From a virus (Duplodnaviria; Heunggongvirae; Uroviricota; Caudoviricetes), in IMG/VR virus record IMGVR_UViG_2648501669_000003, positions 1 to 9,884 of that record: a stretch of DNA of 9,884 nucleotides. One strand, 5' to 3'. The translations under genes were made by a program, and so were the position numbers. Positions 1 through 9,884 of the stretch are shown piece after piece; positions within the stretch are counted from its first letter, which is position 1; each line of letters begins with the position of its first letter. The notes under the pieces are model-generated. The model saw only the letters and a program-made list of their open reading frames with translations, ran no database searches and was not told where the DNA came from.

Positions 1-27
1 CGATGTTGGAAACCCCATAAAACCACA

Positions 28-45
28 ACCCGCATGGAGGCGGGT
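28..45 (-). terminator. Possible stem-loop immediately 3' of the methyltransferase stop codon
   Basis: Inverted repeat acccgc(28-33)/gcgggt(40-45) with a 6-nt loop; on the minus strand it is followed by tgtggttttatggggttt, which is U-rich but interrupted. Weak intrinsic terminator candidate. Confidence 0.3.
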
Positions 46-1095
46 TTAATTGCACATTGCCGAAATTTCACCGACTGTCTGTTCAAACCGTTCAGTTTCA
101 AGCTCAACGCCGATTACCCGACGCCCCAGCGCCATCGCCGCTTTTATTGTTGACCCGGATCCCATAAAGAAATCCGCAACCAAATCACCGGGGTGACTGC
201 TGGCCTCTATTATCTGCCGCAACATATCCGCCGGTTTTTCGCAGGGATGTTTGCCCGGATAATACTGCACAGGCCTGTGCGTCCAGACATCCGTATACGG
301 AACGGCAGCTGATACGGAAAAATAACGCCGCAAAGATTTGTACTCTTCCAGCAGGCTGGCGTATTGACGGTTCAGTTCACTGTATGCGCTGACCAGCTGG
401 AGGTGTGGCTTTTCCAGTTCCCCGCGCTGATGCTTTTCTGCTGCAACACGCGCAAACAATGCCTGCAGTTTTCTGTAATCAGCTTCGTTCGGTAACTGCC
501 ACTGACTGGCACCAAACCAGTGCGAAGCCATATTTTTCTTTCCGGTGGCTTCCGCTATCTGTTTTGACGTTATCCCCAGTGATTCCCGCGCATCACGAAA
601 GTAAGAAATCAGCGGGGCCATGACGTGCTGTTTTAGCTCGCGCCCCTTTGCCGCATAGCCGTCATTTTTGGGCTGGTATGGCCCCTGATAATGTTCTGCA
701 AACAGAATGCGTTCTGTTGCCGGGAAATACGCCCGCAGGCTTTCCTTGTTGCATCCGTTCCAGCGTCCGGACGGCTTCGCCCAGATAATGTGGTTCAGCA
801 CATTAAAGCGTTCACGCATCATGATTTCGGTGTCAGATGCCAGGCGATGACCACAGAACAGGTAGAGACTTCCGGCAGGTTTCAGTACCCGCCAGAATTG
901 CGCCAGACACTGATCCAGCCATTTCAGGTAATCATCGTCGCCCTTCCACTGGTTATCCCAGCCCTCGGGCTTCACTTTAAAGTATGGCGGGTCTGTGACT
1001 ATCAGATCGACAGAGTTTTCCGGCAAGGTCTGGATAAATTCCAGGCAATCAGCGTTGATTAACTCACAACTGGATATTTTTACAGTATTAGCCAT
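46..1095 (-). CDS. DNA methyltransferase, beta-class (N6-adenine or N4-cytosine), orphan
   Basis: 349-aa ORF with ATG at 1095 and TAA at 46-48. Catalytic DPPY motif near the N-terminus (LIVTDPPYF) and AdoMet-binding FxGxG motif near the C-terminus (DFFMGSGST); this IV-then-I order is typical of beta-class amino-MTases. No adjacent restriction endonuclease gene is visible. Confidence 0.85.
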   Translation of the reverse strand: MANTVKISSCELINADCLEFIQTLPENSVDLIVTDPPYFKVKPEGWDNQWKGDDDYLKWLDQCLAQFWRVLKPAGSLYLFCGHRLASDTEIMMRERFNVLNHIIWAKPSGRWNGCNKESLRAYFPATERILFAEHYQGPYQPKNDGYAAKGRELKQHVMAPLISYFRDARESLGITSKQIAEATGKKNMASHWFGASQWQLPNEADYRKLQALFARVAAEKHQRGELEKPHLQLVSAYSELNRQYASLLEEYKSLRRYFSVSAAVPYTDVWTHRPVQYYPGKHPCEKPADMLRQIIEASSHPGDLVADFFMGSGSTIKAAMALGRRVIGVELETERFEQTVGEISAMCN

Positions 1096-1194
1096 AGATC
1101 AATAAGCACTTCTCTGATAGGCTCATACCGCTTTTGCGCAAAGCAGATGGCTGGCAGGTGCCGCTAACACCCACCAGCCGCCCATTACCACAAA

Positions 1195-1219
1195 TAAAAA
1201 AGCCTTCACTGCGGAAGGC
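1195..1219 (-). terminator. Rho-independent terminator overlapping the stop codon of the small HTH ORF
   Basis: Minus-strand hairpin GCCTTC(1219-1214)/GAAGGC(1207-1202) with a 6-nt loop, followed by a TTTTTTA run (1201-1195). Confidence 0.5.
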
Positions 1220-1403
1220 GTCTGTAACAACCGAACTGATAATCTGCCAGACCCGCCATAACAAGCTGAGTCAGTATTAACTGGCAGCGTTCGCGTGAAA
1301 GGTACGTATTCTGCGCAATTTCCCCGACGGTCGCCGGTTCGGTGACGCTTAATTCATTAAACACCACTCTGGCAGTTTCGGTCATATCCTGCTGTTTTAG
1401 CAT
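1206..1403 (-). CDS. Small hypothetical protein with helix-turn-helix-like segment (65 aa)
   Basis: The ORF-track frame 1206..1541 begins at a TTG inside the upstream terminator, so the start was moved to the in-frame ATG at 1403, which has GGGA about 9 nt upstream. An ATG at 1385 is an alternative. The segment TVGEIAQNTYLSRERCQLILTQL looks like an HTH. Flanked by intrinsic terminators on both sides. Confidence 0.4.
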   Translation of the reverse strand: MLKQQDMTETARVVFNELSVTEPATVGEIAQNTYLSRERCQLILTQLVMAGLADYQFGCYRRLPQ

Positions 1404-1526
1404 GTCTTTTTCCCTTTTCTGGTTAACGTGACATACCAATAGCTCTTGTCGAAAAAGCCAGCAAGCTGAAAGACCGGTATTCGCAACCATCAGCGCGTTT
1501 AACGTCCTGTACCGTTTTTCAGGCAT

Positions 1527-1549
1527 AAAAAAAACCCGCAAAAAGCGGG
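1527..1549 (-). terminator. Rho-independent terminator about 80 nt downstream of the Q-like gene (tR'-like)
   Basis: Minus-strand RNA reads GCCCGC-UUUUU-GCGGG followed by eight U (plus-strand A-run 1527-1534). Its position after a Q-like gene matches the lambdoid pR'/tR' arrangement. Confidence 0.6.
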
Positions 1550-1628
1550 CTCTTTCAAATGTCCATGTCTGCTATTCGCCTCGCGGTACAGCTTTGCGAA
1601 GCGTACCGGCATTGAAGCAGTTTTTACG

Positions 1629-2195
1629 TCAAAAAGCAATAACTTTTTTCTCTATACCAAAAGCCATAACCATTGGTTTGTACAAAATAAATTCTGCCAC
1701 CTTTAGCCAATGCTCAATGCGTCTTTCACAGGTTCTTAAACTCCATTCCGGGTGTGCATCATTCAGCAGTTCAGCCATTTTGCGCTTAGTCATCCCCCGC
1801 CCCACATAACGCTGACTCAGGACATTGAGCAGCCCGGGATAACCGGCCAGGGCTTCACCAATAACCCTGTCGATTATTAACGCCTCTGAATCGGTACAAT
1901 GCGCCAGCCAGCTCTTTTGCTTACCATTGATCATCTCTCGCAAAAAAGCCTCAAGTTCAGGTTTGTCCAGACCCGCTTTTTTCATCCTCCGGAGCGCCTC
2001 GTTAATTGCCGTTTTTGTCAGCTTTTTAGAGGTCAGTAATTGGTTGAACATATTTCCCGTCTTACCGCCGCCAATATACGACCAACGCCCCCACATACGC
2101 AGTTTCCCCTGGAGCCAGACACTTTCCAGCGTTTTCAGGCGTAAATGCTCACCGCTTTTGCCTGTAATTTCCGGGTATATCATATTTACGCTCAC
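1629..2195 (-). CDS. Putative late-gene antitermination protein (Q-like)
   Basis: 188-aa ORF directly downstream of rusA and upstream of an intrinsic terminator, which is the canonical lambdoid position of Q. The annotated start is a GTG overlapping the rusA stop (GTGA); an ATG at 2183 is an alternative. Family assignment is positional plus vague recall, not verified. Confidence 0.55.
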   Translation of the reverse strand: MSVNMIYPEITGKSGEHLRLKTLESVWLQGKLRMWGRWSYIGGGKTGNMFNQLLTSKKLTKTAINEALRRMKKAGLDKPELEAFLREMINGKQKSWLAHCTDSEALIIDRVIGEALAGYPGLLNVLSQRYVGRGMTKRKMAELLNDAHPEWSLRTCERRIEHWLKVAEFILYKPMVMAFGIEKKVIAF

Positions 2196-2551
2196 TCACT
2201 TTCAATTTTGTAAATCTTCACGCCCAACCGACCACCAGGAACGACCTGACCGCGCACAATATTGATTTCATCAAACTGCTCGTCGTCGATAAGCAACCGC
2301 GCATGTGTCAGTGCATCCAGTGGTGCTTTCAGAATATTGTCCAGGTCACGACGGCGCTTATCCGGCGGCTCTGCAATGATCTTTATCGCCAGCCTTCCGG
2401 ACAGGTTTAATTTCAGTCGCTGCTGGCGAACAATAAGTGCCACATCCCGGCGATAACGCTCACCGGCTTTTGATACAAAATATGTGCTGCCACGACGACG
2501 CCAGTAGGTGTTCACCGTCGGCGGGTAAGGCAAAACAAACTCTATACGCAT
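2192..2551 (-). CDS. rusA: Holliday-junction resolvase RusA
   Basis: 119 aa with ATG at 2551 and GAGG SD 8-11 nt upstream. Recognisable RusA family pattern (VLPYPPTVNTYWRRRG ... DKRRRDLDNILKAPLDAL ... DDEQ), including the conserved RRRDLDN acidic catalytic region. Confidence 0.85.
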   Translation of the reverse strand: MRIEFVLPYPPTVNTYWRRRGSTYFVSKAGERYRRDVALIVRQQRLKLNLSGRLAIKIIAEPPDKRRRDLDNILKAPLDALTHARLLIDDEQFDEINIVRGQVVPGGRLGVKIYKIESE

Positions 2552-2563
2552 CAGTAACCTCTT

Positions 2564-3613
2564 TTACCCGAGCACACCGGTTGCAAAGGCGTGATCAAGA
2601 AAACGAAAAATTAAATCAACCTGAGAACCATGCTTTTCTTCGAACGCCAGCGGATCCGCATGAAGTTCGTTGTGATGCTCCCGGCACAGCGGTAGCGTGA
2701 AAATATCGTGGGATTTTGTCCCCATTCCGCCCTGACCATGACCAATCAGGTGATGGGGATCGTCGGCTGGCTTACCACAACACGCACACGGCTGTGTCTT
2801 CACCCAGCGCGTGTATTTCTCATTTATCCAACGGCGACGTTTAGGTCGCTTCATGAAAGATTCCGGAGACTCCGGATCTACGGCAATGCTGACCACCGTC
2901 TTTTCCTGTGGTGCGTTCTGTTGCTGGTGGATGTGAGGCAACGGCGCAAGATTTTTTGTGCGCTGCTTCAGTATGCTGGTGGCGGTCTGCTCTCCCGGTA
3001 TGATGTCGCTTTCGCGGTACACCGAGCGGATTTTTTCCGCACGTAACCCCAGAGAACGACGTAATACTGCCTCCGGTAGCGCGTCCGCCAGCTGATTGCG
3101 GACCGCCCACCAGGATAATTCAGCCAGAGATAATTCACGCTCCTGCGTACCGCTTATTGCGTGACCGATGACGTCAATCATCCATGCTGACAGGTTTTGA
3201 TGAGCAAGTTGCTCGAGTGATTCGGATGTCTGGTCACGCAGCTGGTTGTCGCAGTGCCAGCACAACACCATCGCGCCGGTACCGTAACGATGTATGACGG
3301 TTTCACTGTGATGGTAGTCGCCATGAGGCCACTGGCAGGATTTGACATGACGCAACAGCCAGTCAGACAGTGCACCAGCGCCGCCAGCAGCACGAATCAC
3401 CCGTTCGTTGCTGAAAAATGGCAGTAATGATTTATCTTCCGCCAGCGGCTGGCGAACGGCAGGAACGACTCCGGACGGCAGACCGCGCATGCTTTTTGGC
3501 TCCGGTTCAACCAGCACTCTGCCGTTATGGAATACCTGCATGGATTCACGACCTGGCTTAACGATAACCACCCCAAGTTCCGGTACCGGAACAGGTCGAA
3601 GCAATACCCGCAC
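2564..3613 (-). CDS. DUF968 family protein with C-terminal HNH-like nuclease motif (YdfU-like)
   Basis: 349 aa with GTG start at 3613, GGAGG SD 4 nt upstream, 1 nt after the upstream stop. The C-terminus carries a Cys/His cluster (CACCGKPADDPHHLIGHG ... LCREHHNELH) consistent with an HNH fold. Same position relative to hok and Q as ydfU in K-12 Qin (from memory). Confidence 0.75.
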   Translation of the reverse strand: MRVLLRPVPVPELGVVIVKPGRESMQVFHNGRVLVEPEPKSMRGLPSGVVPAVRQPLAEDKSLLPFFSNERVIRAAGGAGALSDWLLRHVKSCQWPHGDYHHSETVIHRYGTGAMVLCWHCDNQLRDQTSESLEQLAHQNLSAWMIDVIGHAISGTQERELSLAELSWWAVRNQLADALPEAVLRRSLGLRAEKIRSVYRESDIIPGEQTATSILKQRTKNLAPLPHIHQQQNAPQEKTVVSIAVDPESPESFMKRPKRRRWINEKYTRWVKTQPCACCGKPADDPHHLIGHGQGGMGTKSHDIFTLPLCREHHNELHADPLAFEEKHGSQVDLIFRFLDHAFATGVLG

Positions 3614-3614
3614 G

Positions 3615-3887
3615 TTACCTCCAGATGCGTTGCTGGAATGTGCGGGACGGACGCGGTGGGCGTTCGGAATAAGGGAGTCTGACGTAGATTATCCAGTGAC
3701 GATAATCGAGGCTGAGGGCTTTCCTAAACTCATACCCACGTCTGCGGTAGTTCTGAATCAGCCATTCGGCCTGTTCTTCAGTGCAGGGATCGTGCTGATA
3801 CCAGTCATATTTGAATGCGTGTGAACGCCGCCCATGCCGGATGGCAAGGTCGGTATCAGAATTGTGAAATTTGGTTTTGTGCGCCAT
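3615..3887 (-). CDS. Hypothetical protein (90 aa), in the position of rem in Qin
   Basis: ATG at 3887 and TAA at 3615-3617; its 3' end carries the SD for the DUF968 gene, suggesting coupling. No recognisable motif. Confidence 0.55.
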   Translation of the reverse strand: MAHKTKFHNSDTDLAIRHGRRSHAFKYDWYQHDPCTEEQAEWLIQNYRRRGYEFRKALSLDYRHWIIYVRLPYSERPPRPSRTFQQRIWR

Positions 3888-3954
3888 CTGTTTTCTCTGC
3901 TGGCGCAGCAGGTGTCAGGTGTTCAGGCTGACGTGCGAATTGTAAACCAGAATG

Positions 3955-3985
3955 CCAGGAAAAAACAAAACCCGCCGAAGCGGGT
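3955..3985 (-). terminator. Rho-independent terminator of the hok transcript
   Basis: Minus-strand hairpin ACCCGC(3985-3980)/GCGGGT(3975-3970) with loop UUCG, followed by UUUUGUUUUUU (3969-3959). Confidence 0.6.
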
Positions 3986-3990
3986 TAAGT

Positions 3991-4005
3991 GCGGGTGCGT
4001 TGAGG
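3991..4005 (-). promoter_or_regulatory. fbi-like 3' element of hok mRNA, complementary to the transcript 5' end
   Basis: Plus-strand 3991-4005 gcgggtgcgttgagg is the reverse complement of plus-strand 4368-4381 cctcaagcacccgc apart from one extra base. Within a single minus-strand transcript these would pair 5' end to 3' end, as in the tac/fbi fold-back of hok mRNAs. A separate perfect 9-bp hairpin lies at 4026-4047. Confidence 0.45.
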
Positions 4006-4054
4006 ATGCCTGACTCATCAGAGGTGGCGAGGGATTTCTCCCTCGCCTGGTCTC

Positions 4055-4210
4055 TTACTCCTCAGGTTCGTAAGCTGTGAAGACAGCGACCTCCGTCTGG
4101 CCGGTTCGGATTCGTACCTCACAGAGGTCTTTCCTCGTTACCAGTGCCGTCACTATGACGGTTAAACAGATGACAATCAGGGCGATTAACATCGCCTTTT
4201 GCTGCTTCAT
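4055..4210 (-). CDS. hokD: Hok/Gef family type I toxin (51 aa), matching HokD/RelF
   Basis: ATG at 4210 with AGGAG SD 9-13 nt upstream and TAA at 4055-4057. Product MKQQKAMLIALIVICLTVIVTALVTRKDLCEVRIRTGQTEVAVFTAYEPEE has the single TM helix and conserved Cys/Glu of Hok proteins and matches my recollection of E. coli HokD. Confidence 0.8.
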   Translation of the reverse strand: MKQQKAMLIALIVICLTVIVTALVTRKDLCEVRIRTGQTEVAVFTAYEPEE

Positions 4211-4267
4211 AGCCTGCTTCTCCTTGCCTTTCGGCACGTAAGAGGCTAACCTACATGTGTTCAGCAT
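4055..4267 (-). CDS. mok-like overlapping reading frame (translational coupling frame for hok)
   Basis: ATG at 4267 with GAGG about 9 nt upstream; the frame runs through and is co-terminal with hok, as in hok/mok loci. Whether it is translated is not determinable from sequence. Confidence 0.35.
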   Translation of the reverse strand: MLNTCRLASYVPKGKEKQAMKQQKAMLIALIVICLTVIVTALVTRKDLCEVRIRTGQTEVAVFTAYEPEE

Positions 4268-4367
4268 GGATTGGCCTCAGATTAATGTTAAGCGTCTTGC
4301 AGGACGCGTAATGTTAACTGGGGCTTTTCTCTATCTGCCTTTTGGTGTTCATGCCTGAGGCAGATAG

Positions 4368-4420
4368 CCTCAAGCACCCGCAGCAATTCTACTTAACTCT
4401 CCTTTTCCCGCAAACCGTTT
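4368..4420 (-). promoter_or_regulatory. Putative hok promoter and 5' end (tac-like element) of hok mRNA
   Basis: Minus-strand TAGAAT -10 candidate (plus 4386-4391) about 6 nt upstream of a GCGGGUGCUUGAGG element (plus 4368-4381) that is complementary to the 3' element at 3991-4005. The -35 is weak. Confidence 0.35.
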
Positions 4421-4500
4421 TTATCCCCATCGGCAAATCGAATACACCACCAGCGCCACCGCCATCGCAATTCCTACCGTTGTGAATGCTTCAGGCCAGC

Positions 4501-5244
4501 TCACTTATCCCCCTCCTCATGACCTCCCCGCTCCCACGGGATGACCAGATCAACATCCACCTTCGCAGCAGCTATTTCCTCCTGTGGAAGGGTGCCATAA
4601 AATTTACGAAGACTTTTCGACATTCTCTCGAAAAAATTAGCCATGTATAAAACACCATCCCCCGCATCCTCTCTGATGCACGAACTTGTATACGCCTTTA
4701 GCAAATCCAGAAACGATATACGTAATGCTCCAGCACACGTATCAAATAAATCCTCATCCTGATCACCTTCAATGTAGGGAATTATCATATACGGCGGCAC
4801 TGATACCCACACCTCAACATCATCAGCACAACTAACACTGATACTCGCAGAGAACGATTCAGGGACATCATCCTCTGGTTCAGAGCCAGTTAATGGCACG
4901 CTCCATTCCTCACCAGTCCAGACGAATTCTTCCAGTAGCTCAACCCCATCGTTCGGTAACACTTGTGCTGGCGGCGCTGCGTAAAGTGGTGTTATTTCTG
5001 CCCGAAAGTCACCTATTTCATGCAGTCGCACCCACCGTTCGGCTTCTACTTTGTCAGAATACAGAGCAGTGAACGTATTATATTCATTGTCAATTTGCGT
5101 GAAGGTTGCCTTCCACGCCACTGGCTCTGCTTCCAGTGATGCCAGAGCAATCCGTGCCACTTCCATTTGTTCGCTACGAGTAAGCCCGTTTTCAAGCGGA
5201 TTTTTAATGAACAATTCAATACGTTCTTTGGTGATAGCGTTCAT
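4501..5244 (-). CDS. Hypothetical acidic protein (247 aa), paralog of the upstream gene; unknown function
   Basis: ATG at 5244 with AAGGA SD, starting 3 nt after the upstream stop. Shares an N-terminal module with the 140-aa protein (RIALASLEAEPVAW ... PLYAAPPA). The C-terminal two-thirds is strongly acidic (EPEDDVPE, EGDQDEDLFD, HEEGDK). Confidence 0.75.
   Translation of the reverse strand: MNAITKERIELFIKNPLENGLTRSEQMEVARIALASLEAEPVAWKATFTQIDNEYNTFTALYSDKVEAERWVRLHEIGDFRAEITPLYAAPPAQVLPNDGVELLEEFVWTGEEWSVPLTGSEPEDDVPESFSASISVSCADDVEVWVSVPPYMIIPYIEGDQDEDLFDTCAGALRISFLDLLKAYTSSCIREDAGDGVLYMANFFERMSKSLRKFYGTLPQEEIAAAKVDVDLVIPWERGGHEEGDK
5111..5160. repeat. Nucleotide-level paralogous segment (copy A) shared between the two adjacent genes
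   Basis: About 38 of 50 nt identical to 5517-5566 by hand alignment (core ctgcttccag[t/c]gatgccag). Encodes the conserved LASLEAEPVAW motif in both proteins. Confidence 0.5.
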
Positions 5245-5247
5245 GTG

Positions 5248-5670
5248 TCATTCCTTAACCTGCAACTGCTTCTTAACCAGTTTACGTAGATGTGCCACAG
5301 CCATAGAAAGAGTTTCCACCGCTCGTTTATCCAGCTGTGGGGACAGAGACACCAGTTCGTTTATTGCGATCTCAATTCCCTGTGCCTGCACTGTGGGAGC
5401 TGGCGGCACACGATACAGCGGAATTACACGACGCGGGTCTGCGTATTTATCTGGAGGACAAGGTAATAAATAACCTAAACCAATTTGCTCAACATCTCGC
5501 AGTTCCTCGTCATCAGTCCATGCAACTGGTTCTGCTTCCAGCGATGCCAGCGCGATACGAAACACATTGGCAAGCAGGCTGCTTGAAGATTGGTTATCGT
5601 GCGCCGGGTCGCTCAGGAAACCAGTGATGAATGATTTAATTTCCGCGTTTTCTCTGGTAGTAGTGGTCAT
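5248..5670 (-). CDS. Hypothetical protein (140 aa), paralog of the downstream acidic protein; unknown function
   Basis: ATG at 5670 overlapping the upstream stop (ATGA), GAGG SD. Contains the shared module (VFRIALASLEAEPVAW ... PLYRVPPAP) and an S-rich segment. Confidence 0.75.
   Translation of the reverse strand: MTTTTRENAEIKSFITGFLSDPAHDNQSSSSLLANVFRIALASLEAEPVAWTDDEELRDVEQIGLGYLLPCPPDKYADPRRVIPLYRVPPAPTVQAQGIEIAINELVSLSPQLDKRAVETLSMAVAHLRKLVKKQLQVKE
5517..5566. repeat. Nucleotide-level paralogous segment (copy B)
   Basis: Counterpart of 5111-5160 at about 76% identity over 50 nt. Confidence 0.5.
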
Positions 5671-5876
5671 TTGTTAATCCTCAAAACTTTATGCCCGGGC
5701 GCAAAAGCACGTGTTTTGTCTTTACTTATTCGCCACCCGTCTTTACGGGCTTCTTTTGCACAACCAGACCATGACGTACCGATATACTCACCGAAGTCTG
5801 GCACTGGATATACACCTTCCGTACACTGGCGGCAGTCACAATAGAGATGCATGGTGTAACTTGCGGCAATAGCCAT
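5667..5876 (-). CDS. Small Cys-rich hypothetical protein (69 aa)
   Basis: ATG at 5876 with strong AAGGAG SD 7-12 nt upstream. Contains CDCRQC and a further Cys (SGC), a possible zinc-binding motif. Stop overlaps the start of the 140-aa gene. Confidence 0.65.
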   Translation of the reverse strand: MAIAASYTMHLYCDCRQCTEGVYPVPDFGEYIGTSWSGCAKEARKDGWRISKDKTRAFAPGHKVLRINK

Positions 5877-5887
5877 ATCAGTCTCCT

Positions 5888-6265
5888 TTAGTGCGCATAT
5901 AACAGTGATTTTTCCAGCGGTTTTGCTCTCCTGCGCTCTCCCCCAAGCGCATAACGTGCTTCTACCGGGTCTTTGTCTTCATATTCATAATTGACGCTTT
6001 TAACCATCGCTACACAGCACTCATTGCAGCATCTATAGGACATAAGCTCGCCATCAAATTTCCATGTTGTGCTGCGGTGTATTTCACCCTTTGAGATTTT
6101 TCCGGCGCATATGTGGCATGTATATTCACCGCGAGAGGTAACGATTTTATTCGATAACTCAATATCGAATGGCGCACCAAAATCACCTTCAAAAAGATAA
6201 AAATCCAGAGCGTCTCCTAAATCTTGTTTACTGTATCTCTGCTGCTCTTTTGTGGTAATGGTCAT
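5888..6265 (-). CDS. Cys-rich hypothetical protein (125 aa), putative zinc-binding
   Basis: The ORF-track start at 6355 is a TTG that overlaps the upstream gene, so the ATG at 6265 was used (AAGGA SD; 1 nt after the upstream stop). Motifs CHIC and CCNECC. Confidence 0.6.
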   Translation of the reverse strand: MTITTKEQQRYSKQDLGDALDFYLFEGDFGAPFDIELSNKIVTSRGEYTCHICAGKISKGEIHRSTTWKFDGELMSYRCCNECCVAMVKSVNYEYEDKDPVEARYALGGERRRAKPLEKSLLYAH

Positions 6266-6266
6266 T

Positions 6267-6485
6267 TCAGTTTTCCTTATATGGATTAATTTTATTGTGC
6301 AGTGCGTTGAACGGGGCCCATACAACGTCGTTATACAATTCAATAACGGGCTCAATTACTTTTCCGATTCCCCATACCAGAATTAAAGGGGATATCGGTA
6401 TCATCAATACGATAAACAGAATGAGAAACAGAAATTCTGTCGCTCTACTTTTTCGCGGATATTTTTTTCTGAATAATGTAGTCAT
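6267..6485 (-). CDS. Small hydrophobic (single-TM) hypothetical protein (72 aa)
   Basis: ATG at 6485. Basic N-terminus (RKKYPRKSR) followed by a hydrophobic stretch FLFLILFIVLMIPISPLILVWGIG typical of a membrane helix. The SD is weak or atypical. Confidence 0.55.
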   Translation of the reverse strand: MTTLFRKKYPRKSRATEFLFLILFIVLMIPISPLILVWGIGKVIEPVIELYNDVVWAPFNALHNKINPYKEN

Positions 6486-6517
6486 TTCTTACCGCCCTTT
6501 CGGGCGGCCCCCTGACA

Positions 6518-6730
6518 TTAATCGTTGTGATAACTCATAGCTTCATTTGCAGCATCAACTGGATCAACATCCCACCAGCAATAATTTGGGTCGGCTCCTT
6601 CAGGTGTCCACGGCTCTAATTCATTTTTTGCCGCATTCTCGTCGCCAGTAATTTTAAAAATCTGCTCAGAAAATTTCCTCACCCACTCGTTATATTTTTC
6701 CGCATTAATGGTTTTCTGTGTATTTAACAT
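6518..6730 (-). CDS. Hypothetical protein (70 aa)
   Basis: ATG at 6730 with GGAGG SD 8 nt upstream and TAA at 6518. Acidic, Trp-containing C-terminal half. Confidence 0.65.
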   Translation of the reverse strand: MLNTQKTINAEKYNEWVRKFSEQIFKITGDENAAKNELEPWTPEGADPNYCWWDVDPVDAANEAMSYHND

Positions 6731-6780
6731 AGATATACCTCCAGTTAAGGATTTGATTTTATTTACAGTGCTAAATTTAT

Positions 6781-7137
6781 TTATTCAGTTCTGGATTTTG
6801 TCGCCCTGCGTATCCGCGCTTTCGCGTTACGCTCAATCTGAATTAACTTTTCTATATTTTTCCGTCTTTCCTGTTCCTCCTGGCGCAATAGCCTTACATC
6901 ATCTGCCAGTCTGGTTTCTCTTTTCGCCACTGAGAGCATCCAGTCAAACGGCTCCACAACTGCACCGCAGATTTTACAGCGGACCTGACGCTCTTTTTCG
7001 TCAACCCGGACAGAGGCGTGATGGCAATATGGTCTTTCCGATGGCTCATAAAGAAAATTAACCTGATTACGTGGGTCATCCTCTTTTGCCGGAAATAAAA
7101 CAATATTACTTAACTCATCTTCTGGTTTTATTTCCAT
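6781..7137 (-). CDS. Hypothetical protein (118 aa) with zinc-ribbon-like motif and basic coiled-coil tail
   Basis: Start moved from the ORF-track ATG at 7179 to the ATG at 7137, which has a strong AGGAGAGGAG SD immediately upstream. Motif CHH-x14-CKIC, then a Lys/Arg/Glu-rich helical tail. Confidence 0.6.
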   Translation of the reverse strand: MEIKPEDELSNIVLFPAKEDDPRNQVNFLYEPSERPYCHHASVRVDEKERQVRCKICGAVVEPFDWMLSVAKRETRLADDVRLLRQEEQERRKNIEKLIQIERNAKARIRRATKSRTE

Positions 7138-7606
7138 ACTCCTCTCCTTTGATATGAATGCCAGCAACACGTAGTTCATGTTCTAAGTCAGCCAGATAAA
7201 GCCAGCAGCCATTTTCTTTAGGTATCATGACGTGGCGCTCATCATCATTTATCGGATGTCCATATCGAAGGCCGTAGCGAGTCGGCAAATGAACTTCCCG
7301 CGCTTCCAGCTCTTTAATGCGTTCCTCGAGTTCGTAGACTCTGCATTGTTCTTTATCATCAATCAGATATAACCCAAGACATTCGCTTTCTACCCAGCCA
7401 CCGAAATCATGATCGTAACGCTCACACGAAAACTCACCATCGCTGTCCTTTGTTGGAATGGTGTAACTGTCTAATGGGCCGCCATACGTCGGCACATTGC
7501 CCAATTTCGGATGCTCAATCCACATGAAAAATGCACGTCCGGTTATAGGACAAATATCTGGTCGCCATTGGTTACTCACTGTTTGCCTCCTGGAAAATAA
7601 CTGCAT
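7115..7606 (-). CDS. Hypothetical protein (163 aa)
   Basis: The ORF-track start at 7645 is a GTG with no SD, so the ATG at 7606 (GGAG about 10 nt upstream) was chosen. The start is uncertain and overlaps the DUF4406 3' end by 35 nt. No recognised family. Confidence 0.5.
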   Translation of the reverse strand: MQLFSRRQTVSNQWRPDICPITGRAFFMWIEHPKLGNVPTYGGPLDSYTIPTKDSDGEFSCERYDHDFGGWVESECLGLYLIDDKEQCRVYELEERIKELEAREVHLPTRYGLRYGHPINDDERHVMIPKENGCWLYLADLEHELRVAGIHIKGEEYGNKTRR

Positions 7607-7871
7607 GCCCCAGTTTCTCCGCCAGTGCCAGTTCTGCCTTAGCACCTGCTGACCGCTGCCAGCCTTTCAGCATGTAAATCGCATCCACACAACGAATCAT
7701 TGCCATGCAAATATCCATGTAGTGTGGCTGTGTCAGCCCGTCCGGAAGTACTGCCGGGCTTAAGACTGTATGCCCTTCCCGTTTCAGTTCCTCTTCCGCA
7801 TTGTGGAACGCCTCACGGTTGAAATTTTTATACCCGGTCATTGGACCGGCGATATAGACTCTCACCCTCAC
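7572..7871 (-). CDS. DUF4406 / nucleoside 2-deoxyribosyltransferase-like protein
   Basis: 99 aa with GTG start at 7871 overlapping the Ren-like stop (GTGA) and AGGAGG SD 7 nt upstream. N-terminal VYIAGPMTG motif and C-terminal IYMLKGWQRSAGAKAE segment are characteristic of this family. Confidence 0.75.
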   Translation of the reverse strand: MRVRVYIAGPMTGYKNFNREAFHNAEEELKREGHTVLSPAVLPDGLTQPHYMDICMAMIRCVDAIYMLKGWQRSAGAKAELALAEKLGHAVIFQEANSE

Positions 7872-8263
7872 CCCATCACCTCCTGAAAGTTTCCCCGATA
7901 AAACGCCAGCACTCGCTGCATAACCTCACTCTTCCGGCACTCGCGACAGATTATGTTCTGGCTCCTGTCGTAGCGGCGTATCTCTCCGTCTGGTAACTTC
8001 CGAATCAGCGTCTGGTCAGTTGTTTTCTCCGGTGTCTTACGCCATTCACGATACGCCTGCTCTGATGCAAAAACACCGTATTCCCCGGACATGTATAAAT
8101 CACCACAAGCCAGTACATCCACAAGGCAGCGTCGGACCGAATGCCAGCCTGCTCCCGTCGCTCTCTCCAGTTGCGACATCGTCATGCGTCCATTTTTGCG
8201 TACCAATCCGATAATTCGTGCCTTCAGCTCTTCCCGCTGTTCGGGTGTAAAAGGTTTCGCCAT
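7868..8263 (-). CDS. Ren-like protein
   Basis: 131 aa with ATG at 8263 and GGAGGG SD. The C-terminal segment ICRECRKSEVMQRVLAFY resembles my recollection of lambda Ren (FKECRQSAAMKRVLAVY), and the gene sits immediately after the P-like gene, as ren does in lambda. Confidence 0.6.
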   Translation of the reverse strand: MAKPFTPEQREELKARIIGLVRKNGRMTMSQLERATGAGWHSVRRCLVDVLACGDLYMSGEYGVFASEQAYREWRKTPEKTTDQTLIRKLPDGEIRRYDRSQNIICRECRKSEVMQRVLAFYRGNFQEVMG

Positions 8264-8292
8264 AAACCCTCCCGGTAAAATTACTTATCAAC

Positions 8293-8958
8293 TCAAACAA
8301 AACCTGCCGCTTTCCTGCGTTCATATTCCTGTTTCAGCAACTCAATTGGCGTTGGTCCCGCAGGACGTATGGGTGCTGCCAGTTGCCTACGGACGGGTGG
8401 AACACTCAGTCCGTTACCAACATGCTTTGCCCATTTCGCCAGTTGCCGTTCTGCAAGCCGTTTTAACTCCCCTTCGGTCATCTGGCGCTCAATCCCCTTT
8501 GAACGCATCTCGAGACAAATGTGATACAGCACAGGCTGAGACCACGGGTATTTATCGCTTCCGTCGTATCGCCAGGACTCGTTGCGCCAGCGTCGGTACT
8601 CCTCCATCACGTTATCCACCGTCAGACCAAATGGATTTGCCCCGCTCTCCGAAATCAGCGCCACAAACTCAGCCAAGTCCGGAGGCCATGTTTCACCTGC
8701 CCTGCAACGGTCCATGCACTGGCGGCAGACCAGCCGGATTTGCTGCTCAGTCATCGCGCCAATCTGTGCAATCCAGAGCTTCGAAGGTGCGGCCCCGTTC
8801 TTCTGGGTCCAGCGGTTCGAATAAACCTCCCCCATGAGTTCCCACAGCTTCCACGCCGTTTCCGTCGCTGATAAATCCATTTTCACGTTCCCACTGCTCA
8901 CGTGCTGCCCGAATTTCCTGAACTGCCCGTGATGCGGTGCCACCTGGTGCGGCTGCAT
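8293..8958 (-). CDS. Replication protein P-like (DnaB helicase loader); start uncertain
   Basis: The C-terminal 150 aa align by eye to lambda P (PPDLAEFVAL ... YPWSQ ... ELKRLAERQ). ATG at 8958 has a GGGGGTGA SD but makes a 212-nt out-of-frame overlap with the O-like ORF. Alternative in-frame ATGs lie at 8880 and 8754; the latter overlaps the O-like stop by 8 nt. Confidence 0.7.
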   Translation of the reverse strand: MQPHQVAPHHGQFRKFGQHVSSGNVKMDLSATETAWKLWELMGEVYSNRWTQKNGAAPSKLWIAQIGAMTEQQIRLVCRQCMDRCRAGETWPPDLAEFVALISESGANPFGLTVDNVMEEYRRWRNESWRYDGSDKYPWSQPVLYHICLEMRSKGIERQMTEGELKRLAERQLAKWAKHVGNGLSVPPVRRQLAAPIRPAGPTPIELLKQEYERRKAAGFV

Positions 8959-9787
8959 GGCTCACCCCCTTGCTGACTGGTTTAACCTGCGCCCTGACGT
9001 GATTTACGTGACGGGCGAATTTCTGCTCCCACTGAACCTGCGTAAATACTTTCCCCTCCGCTGCCCAGTAGTCCCGGAAGGCGGCAAGTTCAGCAGGTGT
9101 AAATTCCGGCTCCGGCAAAGCCATCCCCCACACCGCAGCCCGTCGTCGAAAATCCCGTGACGGATGCCAGCTATCGGTCATCGGAAATTTTCCGATGGGT
9201 TCGCTCAGGCCATCCAGGAATACGGGTGGCACTGCCTGTAACGACAAAACTTCCTGCTCACTGGTCGGAGCACTCTCGCGTGCATTATGTGTGGGGTTTA
9301 GATCTTTGGGTTCCTTTGGGTTCCGTGATCCGTTTTTGGGTGTCTTTGATGGAAAATTTGGGTGTCTTTGGTTATTTTCCATGCAGCTAAGAGTTCCGTT
9401 TTTGGGGCTGTTTTGTGCTGAAACATAACCATTTTCGGTACTGTTTTTATTAACAGTACCAATTTTACCCACCTTTAAAGACTCCCGTTTTTGGGTGTAT
9501 TCAGGCTCGGCAACGCTTTCTTCTACACCGATAAGTCGGTACACTACGATTTGCTTTGTTCGGCCTTTTCTCTCACCGGTATCAACAATTAACCCAATCT
9601 CCATCAGGTGTCGTAAGCTGTCCTGCACAGTCTTTTTGTTCAGCTCCGTTACTTCTGCCAGTGCAGATACAGACGGGTATGCACACAAATCGGCACCGCA
9701 CATATCAGCAAGCCAGGTCAATACTGACTTACTGGATGAACTGCCGGTTTTCACCTTTTTAGCCCATCGTAGTGCATCGATACTCAT
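8747..9787 (-). CDS. Replication initiator (O-like): N-terminal wHTH DNA-binding domain fused to a DnaT-like C-terminal domain
   Basis: The ORF-track start at 9862 is a TTG, so the ATG at 9787 (MSIDALRWAKK, GGGG upstream) was used. The N-terminus looks like a winged HTH. The C-terminal segment GKFPMTDSWHPSRDFRRRAAVWGMALPEPEFTPAELAAFRDYWAAEGKVFTQVQWEQKFAR matches the C-terminal region of E. coli DnaT as I recall it. The central linker is low-complexity and encoded by the iterons. Confidence 0.75.
   Translation of the reverse strand: MSIDALRWAKKVKTGSSSSKSVLTWLADMCGADLCAYPSVSALAEVTELNKKTVQDSLRHLMEIGLIVDTGERKGRTKQIVVYRLIGVEESVAEPEYTQKRESLKVGKIGTVNKNSTENGYVSAQNSPKNGTLSCMENNQRHPNFPSKTPKNGSRNPKEPKDLNPTHNARESAPTSEQEVLSLQAVPPVFLDGLSEPIGKFPMTDSWHPSRDFRRRAAVWGMALPEPEFTPAELAAFRDYWAAEGKVFTQVQWEQKFARHVNHVRAQVKPVSKGVSHAAAPGGTASRAVQEIRAAREQWERENGFISDGNGVEAVGTHGGGLFEPLDPEERGRTFEALDCTDWRDD
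9304..9499. repeat. Iteron array (putative phage replication origin) embedded in the initiator gene
   Basis: Direct repeats: ctttgggttc twice in tandem (9304-9313, 9314-9323); ccgtttttggg at 9330-9340, 9396-9406 and 9485-9495; tttgggtgtctttg at 9335-9348 and 9357-9370. An AT-rich block follows at about 9410-9480. This is analogous to ori-lambda inside gene O. Confidence 0.6.
9437..9460. repeat. 9-bp inverted repeat with 6-bp spacer inside the AT-rich part of the putative origin
   Basis: ggtactgtt-tttatt-aacagtacc; a perfect palindrome in the AT-rich segment. Confidence 0.4.
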
Positions 9788-9884
9788 ACGAACCCCTGGC
9801 AGACATTTGTTTATCTGCAAAGTAATATTGGTATTGCTGACGATACGCACGCTTGAAAGCAATGGCTTTTTCTATAAGCTCGTC
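9759..9884 (-). CDS. Partial CDS: C-terminal about 41 codons of an upstream gene, truncated by the window edge
   Basis: Minus-strand frame open from the window edge to TAA at 9759-9761 (DELIEKAIAFKRAYRQQYQYYFADKQMSARGSYEYRCTTMG). It has more G-initial codons than the alternative TTG-extended O frame and overlaps the O-like start by 29 nt. Identity unknown. Confidence 0.3.
   Translation of the reverse strand, partial: DELIEKAIAFKRAYRQQYQYYFADKQMSARGSYEYRCTTMG

Follow-up and report, generated by a model that had tools for sequence, protein, structure and literature searches.

The window analyzed here, the whole 9,884-nucleotide (nt) stretch of the Caudoviricetes record IMGVR_UViG_2648501669_000003 (IMG/VR; positions 1 to 9,884), corresponds to the early-right region of a lambdoid prophage. 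All genes of interest are on its minus strand. They include an O-like replication initiator gene and a P-like helicase-loader gene, which are read in different frames over a long shared stretch. The initial annotation placed the end of the O-like frame at 8747 and an ATG with a Shine-Dalgarno (SD) sequence for the P-like frame at 8958, giving a 212-nt overlap; every one of these coordinates was rechecked and holds. Comparative sequence data and structure models indicate that, in all likelihood, two essential phage replication genes truly overlap here on one strand and in different frames. The features of the locus are listed in Table 1.

The O-like open reading frame (ORF) ends at the TGA at 8749-8747, and the ATG at 9787 is its most likely start; annotated relatives carry a coding sequence (CDS) of identical length (1041 nt). 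Residues 201-267 were identified with Pfam as a DnaT DNA-binding domain (PF17948; 62.8 bits against a cut-off of 25), while the N terminus matched the helix-turn-helix (HTH) family HTH_36 at 20.8 bits, under its cut-off of 25. By the Pfam domain end, the frame continues for 79 codons beyond the DnaT domain, close to the 80 estimated previously. No match to lambda O was obtained with BLASTP. Iteron-like direct repeats were found inside the gene, with a 19-nt unit (TCCGTTTTTGGGTGTCTTT) at 9329, 9395, and 9484 and a 14-nt unit at 9305, 9335, and 9357, and they map to the low-complexity middle of the protein. By analogy with ori-lambda, which is likewise sited within O, these repeats are probably the phage origin. 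With its DnaT domain, N-terminal HTH, and iterons within the gene, the product is assigned from its sequence to the DnaT-domain, DopC-like phage initiators.

The P-like protein matched Phage_lambda_P (PF06992) over residues 59-188 with 60.7 bits against a cut-off of 26, and phrog_109, "P-like helicase loader," matched residues 20-220; no NCBIfam model matched it. Homologs of 212-223 amino acids (aa) span residues 1-221 of the long form. An AlphaFold2 (AF2) model built on a 38-sequence alignment had a mean predicted local distance difference test (pLDDT) score of 72.8, with residues 1-27 disordered and confident helices at residues 29-46, 48-54, 60-67, and 71-86. With Foldseek, the best Protein Data Bank matches were DnaB-bound lambda P chains, with alignments of 194-224 columns; for chains Y, V, and Z of 9oa1, the probability was 1.0 and the template modeling (TM) score 0.41-0.51. 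By family model and predicted fold, the protein is therefore placed among the lambda-P-type helicase loaders.

Table 1. Features of the O-like/P-like locus in window coordinates
Feature	Position	Strand	Remarks
O-like replication initiator gene	8747..9787	-	346 aa; N-terminal HTH, iteron-bearing middle, DnaT domain, 79-residue C-terminal tail
P-like helicase-loader gene, long form (proposed true CDS)	8293..8958	-	221 aa; PF06992, homolog coverage, conservation, AF2 model
Out-of-frame O/P overlap	8747..8958	-	212 nt; O codon position 1 = P codon position 3
SD sequence of P (AAGGGGGTGA), within O coding sequence	8962..8971	-	SD present in 28/30 non-redundant loci
Proposed P start codon, ATG	8956..8958	-	Every locus has an ATG 39-50 codons before invariant W50
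Overlap segment A, O frame constrained	8878..8958	-	O helix about 287-302; P leader 1-27 variable, disordered
Motif ASRAVQEIRAAREQWER of O helix	8929-8882	-	Within segment A
Overlap segment B, P frame constrained	8750..8874	-	P helices 29-46, 48-54, 60-67; Gly/Asp/Glu-rich O tail ~306-346
ATG of P M27	8878..8880	-	Lineage-specific in-frame ATG; ACG in most relatives
ATG of P M42	8833..8835	-	Start in 180-aa public annotations; W36, W39, and helix 29-46 upstream
Junction ATGACTGA: O stop (8749-8747) and ATG of P M69 (8754-8752)	8747..8754	-	8-nt overlap
Peptide TAWKLWELMGEVYSNR within P residues 1-68		-	Upstream of M69
Iteron-like direct repeats inside O gene	9305..9502	.	19-nt unit x3, 14-nt unit x3

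Both frames had been regarded as coding in the overlap, partly from an enrichment of G at the first codon position of O and from the richness of the P frame in NNG codons. The former was reproduced, with 37 of 70 O codons (53%) beginning with G. Because each O codon begins on the third base of a P codon, however, the two clues are the same nucleotides, and a single signal had been counted twice. Evidence that the P frame is coding was instead obtained from its conservation. Across eight relatives (85-98% identical at the nucleotide level), residues 28-67 of the P frame (DLSATETAWKLWELMGEVYSNRWTQKNGAAPSKLWIAQIG) were nearly invariant, with two conservative substitutions, whereas the O-frame translation of the same bases varied. 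In homologs down to 45% identity, from Salmonella, Citrobacter, Enterobacter, Klebsiella, Kluyvera, Pectobacterium, Brenneria, Serratia, and others, W39, W50, K53, N54, G55, P58, and W62 were invariant or nearly so. Residues 35-68, all encoded upstream of 8754, were conserved like the rest of P; for residues 37-70, amino acid identity matched that of the remaining protein at every divergence level compared, being 0.77 against 0.72-0.83 and, in a second comparison, 0.51 against 0.44-0.54. These data, with the structure model, make it nearly certain that P is coding upstream of 8754.

This bears directly on the alternative that P starts at the ATG at 8754, an option also raised in the initial annotation. 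Here, the product would be 153 aa long, its translation would be coupled to the O stop via ATGACTGA, the P frame further upstream would be untranslated, and the overlap would shrink to 8 nt. The 8-nt overlap does exist, and ATGACTGA is a classical coupling junction; this start is used by the Prokaryotic Genome Annotation Pipeline (PGAP) and by two GenBank phage records, and the BLASTP alignment to lambda P begins only at residue 86. As the true boundary, however, the junction (ATGA / ATGNNTGA) fails, with at least 34 conserved P-frame residues and three predicted helices upstream of it. A start at 8754 would delete the confident helices between residues 29 and 67 and a region that is conserved from genus to genus and contains invariant Trp, Lys, Asn, Gly, and Pro. 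Polymorphisms in residues 35-68 are mostly synonymous in P, 9 of 30 lineages lack Met at residue 69, and the same gene is annotated at 180-223 aa in other genera. Nor do the P proteins of homologs start uniformly at the 8754 equivalent, as those of 212-223 aa cover the whole long form. The shorter P is thus contradicted by the homologs, and this start is considered very improbable.

The comparison with lambda P itself does not settle the N terminus by BLASTP. With a hidden Markov model (HMM) built without lambda P, family position 69 aligned to lambda P residue 81, so the N-terminal region of the 221-aa form is of lambda P size, while that of the 153-aa form is essentially absent. An earlier full-length HMM match to lambda P was discounted as circular, since lambda P had been in the alignment. 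Lambda P loses its function when codons 9-86 are deleted (PMC3640518).

The position of the start codon was then compared among loci from a scan of one genome per species, which returned 38 loci, 30 of them with an initiator gene followed by an intact P gene of this subfamily. Upstream of the ATG, at a distance of 3-11 nt, all but two of the 30 non-redundant loci had an SD match of at least 4 nt (mostly GGAGGT), and 20 had one of at least 5 nt; the background inside O genes was 17% and 5%, respectively. The O dipeptide encoded across the P ATG takes eight forms (HA, NA, HV, HE, YV, YA, DA, and NG), always with xAT-Gxx retained. Since the dipeptide varies while the ATG stays, what is under selection is the P start codon rather than the pair of O residues. 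The 8958 equivalent is the only start conserved family-wide, and P very probably starts there, which gives the overlap its full 212 nt.

A start between 8958 and about 8850, at M27 (8880) or M42 (8835), would reduce the overlap to 89-134 nt and leave residues 1-27 unmade. Those residues are poorly conserved and modeled as disordered, the window does carry an ATG at 8880, many public records call the protein at 180 aa, and some Pectobacterium proteins are called from MAW.... The M27 ATG, however, has no good SD, and most relatives carry ACG in its place. M42 lies downstream of the invariant W39, the conserved A35 and W36, and helix 29-46, which places the 180-aa start too late. The one ATG that all lineages share, together with its SD, is the 8958 equivalent. 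An internal start is accordingly judged improbable, if less so than one at 8754.

Slightly more credit, though still little, is given to the production of two P isoforms, the full-length protein from 8958 and a short P' of 153 aa made by termination-reinitiation at ATGACTGA. The junction is conserved in the Escherichia-Klebsiella-Salmonella group, and the third-base T of the Thr/Ser codon that creates the O stop is kept in 17 of 30 lineages. Neither M69 nor the junction is conserved in the deeper lineages, where the O stops lie at +59 to +92 nt and some have L or F as residue 69. Two isoforms would be compatible with a long overlap and P initiation at 8958, not opposed to them.

The overlap itself recurs outside the window. 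In all 30 intact loci, representing more than 12 genera, the KNG codons of P lie 20-92 nt before the end of the initiator ORF. All 38 sequences, namely, the window, 7 annotated relatives, and the 30 genome loci, share the phase of the overlap, which measures 149-224 nt. Because the same phase recurs in the loci of other species and in the annotated relatives, the overlap is more than chance at the sequence level. The arrangement is conserved across many enterobacterial prophages and, from its distribution, is an old feature. It had been proposed that a frameshift altered the end of the O-like gene, in which case O-like homologs should end near the 8958 equivalent. They do not, and a frameshift here is excluded: the tail is present in the same frame in 37 of 37 related sequences (the 7 relatives and the 30 loci). 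An artefactual tail, arising by a frameshift or a lost stop in this prophage, has in its favor the existence of tail-less DnaT-type initiators of 263-276 aa; these, however, sit in modules with a different P subfamily. Of all the alternatives, this one is the least credible, with next to no chance of being right.

The other eight loci of the scan were two stand-alone copies in Erwinia, one frameshifted locus, one degraded locus, and four true lambda-type modules; in three of the latter four, the P-frame ORF opens just 22-29 nt before the O stop. The Erwinia copies (L031 2492-3118 and L039 2507-3076) are intact P homologs without an upstream initiator gene. One lies between ttcA-like and DEAD-box helicase genes, the neighborhood of Rac in E. 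coli, and the other follows a phosphotransferase system (PTS) transporter gene; both could be domesticated genes or the final traces of prophages. In L038 (Leclercia adecarboxylata NCTC13032, ~2437-2690), the P-frame ORF continues into the tail of the O frame (…WQVMGGNILEPVDAEEW…). Both genes are broken there by a 1-nt indel within the overlap, reflecting either a pseudogene or a homopolymer sequencing error.

The distribution of variants was examined in 72 distinct haplotypes at E. coli-level divergence. In segment A (8958-8878), 25 variants were counted, of which 14 were synonymous in O and nonsynonymous in P and 5 were the reverse. In segment B (about 8850-8750), the preference was inverted: 29 variants included 6 that were synonymous in O but nonsynonymous in P and 17 that were synonymous in P but nonsynonymous in O. 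Variant density was 29-31 per 100 nt in the overlap, compared with 44-45 in the flanks. At depth, O synonymous sites behaved normally in segment A and were frozen in segment B, where O codon identity given an identical amino acid was 0.79-0.99, compared with 0.44-0.75 outside the overlap. The P leader (residues 1-27) retained just 24-38% identity at depth. As read from these substitutions, it is the O frame that is under purifying selection between 8958 and about 8878, and the P frame that takes over between about 8874 and 8750. The claim that both frames look coding therefore stands in that both are under selection, but they are so over different bases, the O frame in segment A and the P frame in segment B. 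One of the 72 close haplotypes (relatives L047-L126, about 8750-8850) carried a P-frame nonsense change in segment B; it presumably marks a decaying cryptic prophage.

The structure models follow a similar division. In the O model, a confident DnaT domain is followed by a disordered linker bearing the SD and ATG of P, then by a helix at residues 287-302 (SRAVQEIRAAREQWER), and last by a tail (~306-346) of mostly low confidence. Helical modeling of one product largely coincides with modeled disorder of the other.

A switch of constraint between frames at ~8880 would also be expected from an O-P fusion made by a programmed +1 ribosomal frameshift near that point. In addition, a single PHROG family, phrog_15931 (482 positions), aligns with O residues 161-345 as well as with P residues 12-221, as fused ORFs in some genomes could cause. 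The mechanism would need a +1 shift, which is rare in bacteria, whereas the conserved SD and ATG at proper spacing indicate independent initiation. The O frame stays open for 35-45 codons past the hand-over point, and on inspection the hand-over sequence was not conserved between genera, although no dedicated slippery-site search was made. A fusion is considered highly unlikely, on a par with the 8754 start. The phrog_15931 profile suggests that fused or mis-framed O-P ORFs occur in some phage records, and the family itself probably consists of fused or mis-called ORFs.

Several observations weigh against a long dual-coding overlap or limit the evidence for it. Neither BLASTP nor the HMM built without lambda P detected sequence homology between P residues 1-68 and the N terminus of lambda P. 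At two loci (L025 and L041), the O tails are shorter. O-frame R/W toggling accompanies synonymous AAC/AAT changes in P. A comparison of synonymous sites in both frames had been suggested; each frame was found to be selected in its own segment, but P third positions in segment B showed no significant extra conservation at depth (median of 0.45 versus 0.43, P = 0.28). From this null result, it appears that the sequence of the O tail is barely selected and only its openness is. When synonymous P codons were resampled, no O-frame stop arose before the observed one in ~24% of trials per locus. Over the 12 lineages with <60% identity, the product was ~1e-9, a value that is supportive rather than exact, as the test conditions on the observed stops and the lineages are not fully independent. 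With that reservation, the calculation supports an openness of the O tail beyond chance. Taken with the P-frame conservation, the conserved SD and ATG, the partitioned selection, and the recurrence in 30 loci, the data favor the genuine long overlap.

For the overlap so understood, the following mode of expression is proposed. Ribosomes translating the O-like initiator would read through to the TGA at 8749-8747, while other ribosomes would initiate independently at the internal SD and ATG (8971-8956) to produce the 221-aa P-like helicase loader. The first ~80 shared nt would encode the conserved O helix over the disordered P leader. The last ~125 shared nt would encode the first three conserved P helices over a flexible acidic/glycine O tail, the frame of which is kept open. 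Because the ribosome-binding site of P lies in a gene that is itself translated, synthesis of P, a toxic protein that sequesters DnaB, is probably kept low in relation to that of O.

The O tail and its P also appear to move together. The tail, of ~70 residues, has the consensus GG..[HN]A...A.QQIRAAR..W...G..G..L.EPLD.EE[RW]... and follows five Pfam architectures, HTH_36+DnaT, DUF1376+DnaT, Phage_rep_O, HTH_36/DnaD_N, and DUF1376 alone, as well as initiators without any Pfam match. Tail-less DnaT-type initiators (263 and 276 aa) precede lambda-type P proteins (258-260 aa), with overlaps of 4 and 29 nt; they are 84% identical through KFARHV.H.R and then have a lambda-like end, NNTDWIEGVWDE. At the sequence level, the extreme C terminus of the initiator travels with its P type. 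We infer that the O tail and P form one DNA piece, inherited as one recombination unit, and that this unit was joined to several unrelated initiator bodies. In lambda, the C terminus of O recruits P; by analogy, the conserved O helix in the overlap is probably a P-docking element. A more speculative proposal, held to be possible but doubtful, is that the overlap co-encodes both halves of the docking interface, with O helix 287-302 binding P helices 29-67, so that recombination cannot separate them. If true, such an interleaved interface would explain how one tail-P unit came to be found on at least five initiator domain architectures, and as a further consequence, ribosome traffic over the P start site would control the dosage of toxic P. 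As a putative indivisible recombination unit of initiator tail and loader, the overlap offers a testable hypothesis on where initiator-loader specificity resides in non-lambda O/P systems.

The N terminus of P is annotated inconsistently in public databases. Near-identical DNA is present in PPompW/Stx2a phages, in Rac-SA53, and in 1,295 of 5,426 complete E. coli genomes. In RefSeq (PGAP), the gene is always a 153-aa "replication protein P" starting at the 8754 equivalent (M69), with an 8-nt overlap, and the two GenBank phage records mentioned above use the same start. The PPompW records call P at 140 aa, and further public records of the same gene give 180 aa or 221 aa. One E. coli gene has thus been deposited with four N termini (221, 180, 153, and 140 aa), the newest RefSeq models being the 153-aa form. 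From the conservation and the structure model, the 153-aa form and the 180- and 140-aa calls are likely N-terminal truncations introduced by annotation. The RefSeq form is without ~68 residues, including three conserved helices, and anyone cloning or modeling the 153-aa protein would be working on a truncated protein. The gene is very common in prophages of E. coli and Enterobacterales and is annotated with four starts.

Of the neighboring genes, a YdaT-family toxin gene lies upstream of the O-like gene and, in annotated relatives, overlaps its start by 29 nt; in the window (9759-9884), it is cut off by the window end. Downstream are genes for DUF977, DUF4406, DUF968/HNH, a Q-like antiterminator, and a DNA methylase.

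Of the known systems, lambda O/P is like the window in gene order, in the origin-like iterons inside the initiator gene, and in having a P of the PF06992 family. Lambda P has 233 aa compared with 221 aa here, and the predicted fold matches over nearly the whole length (P structures 6BBM, 8V9T, and 9OA1). The differences lie in the initiator and in the junction. The initiator is not a lambda O homolog, having a DnaT domain and a 79-residue tail that are both absent from lambda O. Lambda O and P overlap by 4 nt (ATGA) and related lambda-type modules by 4-29 nt, in contrast to the 212 nt found here. A parallel is O', a read-through product of lambda O (Yates et al. 1977, as cited in PMC3640518), in which an initiator C-terminal extension is likewise encoded in the 5' part of P in another frame. 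In phage lambda (L008 984-1092), the O frame was found to be open for 35 codons past the UGA inside P, matching O'. The O' product, however, is minor and needs UGA read-through, and its O codons start on P position 2, a different phase. The extension described here would be constitutive, judging from the genes alone, is twice the length of that in O', and has a conserved open frame.

DopC/DopE and their phage relatives show the same pair of architectures: a protein with HTH_36 and a DnaT C-terminal domain comes directly before one that resembles lambda P (Brezellec et al. 2017, PMC5509034). The subject of that study is chromosomal copies domesticated in Cellvibrionales and Oceanospirillales, and gene overlap goes unmentioned in it. 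The literature searches, which were incomplete so that novelty is unproven, returned no description of the overlap; it is of a known general kind and apparently not described before. Its general features resemble the overlaps produced by viral overprinting (PMC8227390), with two frames, order against disorder, and one frame dominating the substitutions. Unlike in overprinting, neither gene here is nested, neither looks newly made, and dominance switches midway. Each protein contributes a poorly conserved, largely disordered terminus (P 1-27 and O ~306-346) opposite a conserved helix of the other, and the locus offers a clear natural illustration of the way in which a long overlap can be tolerated.

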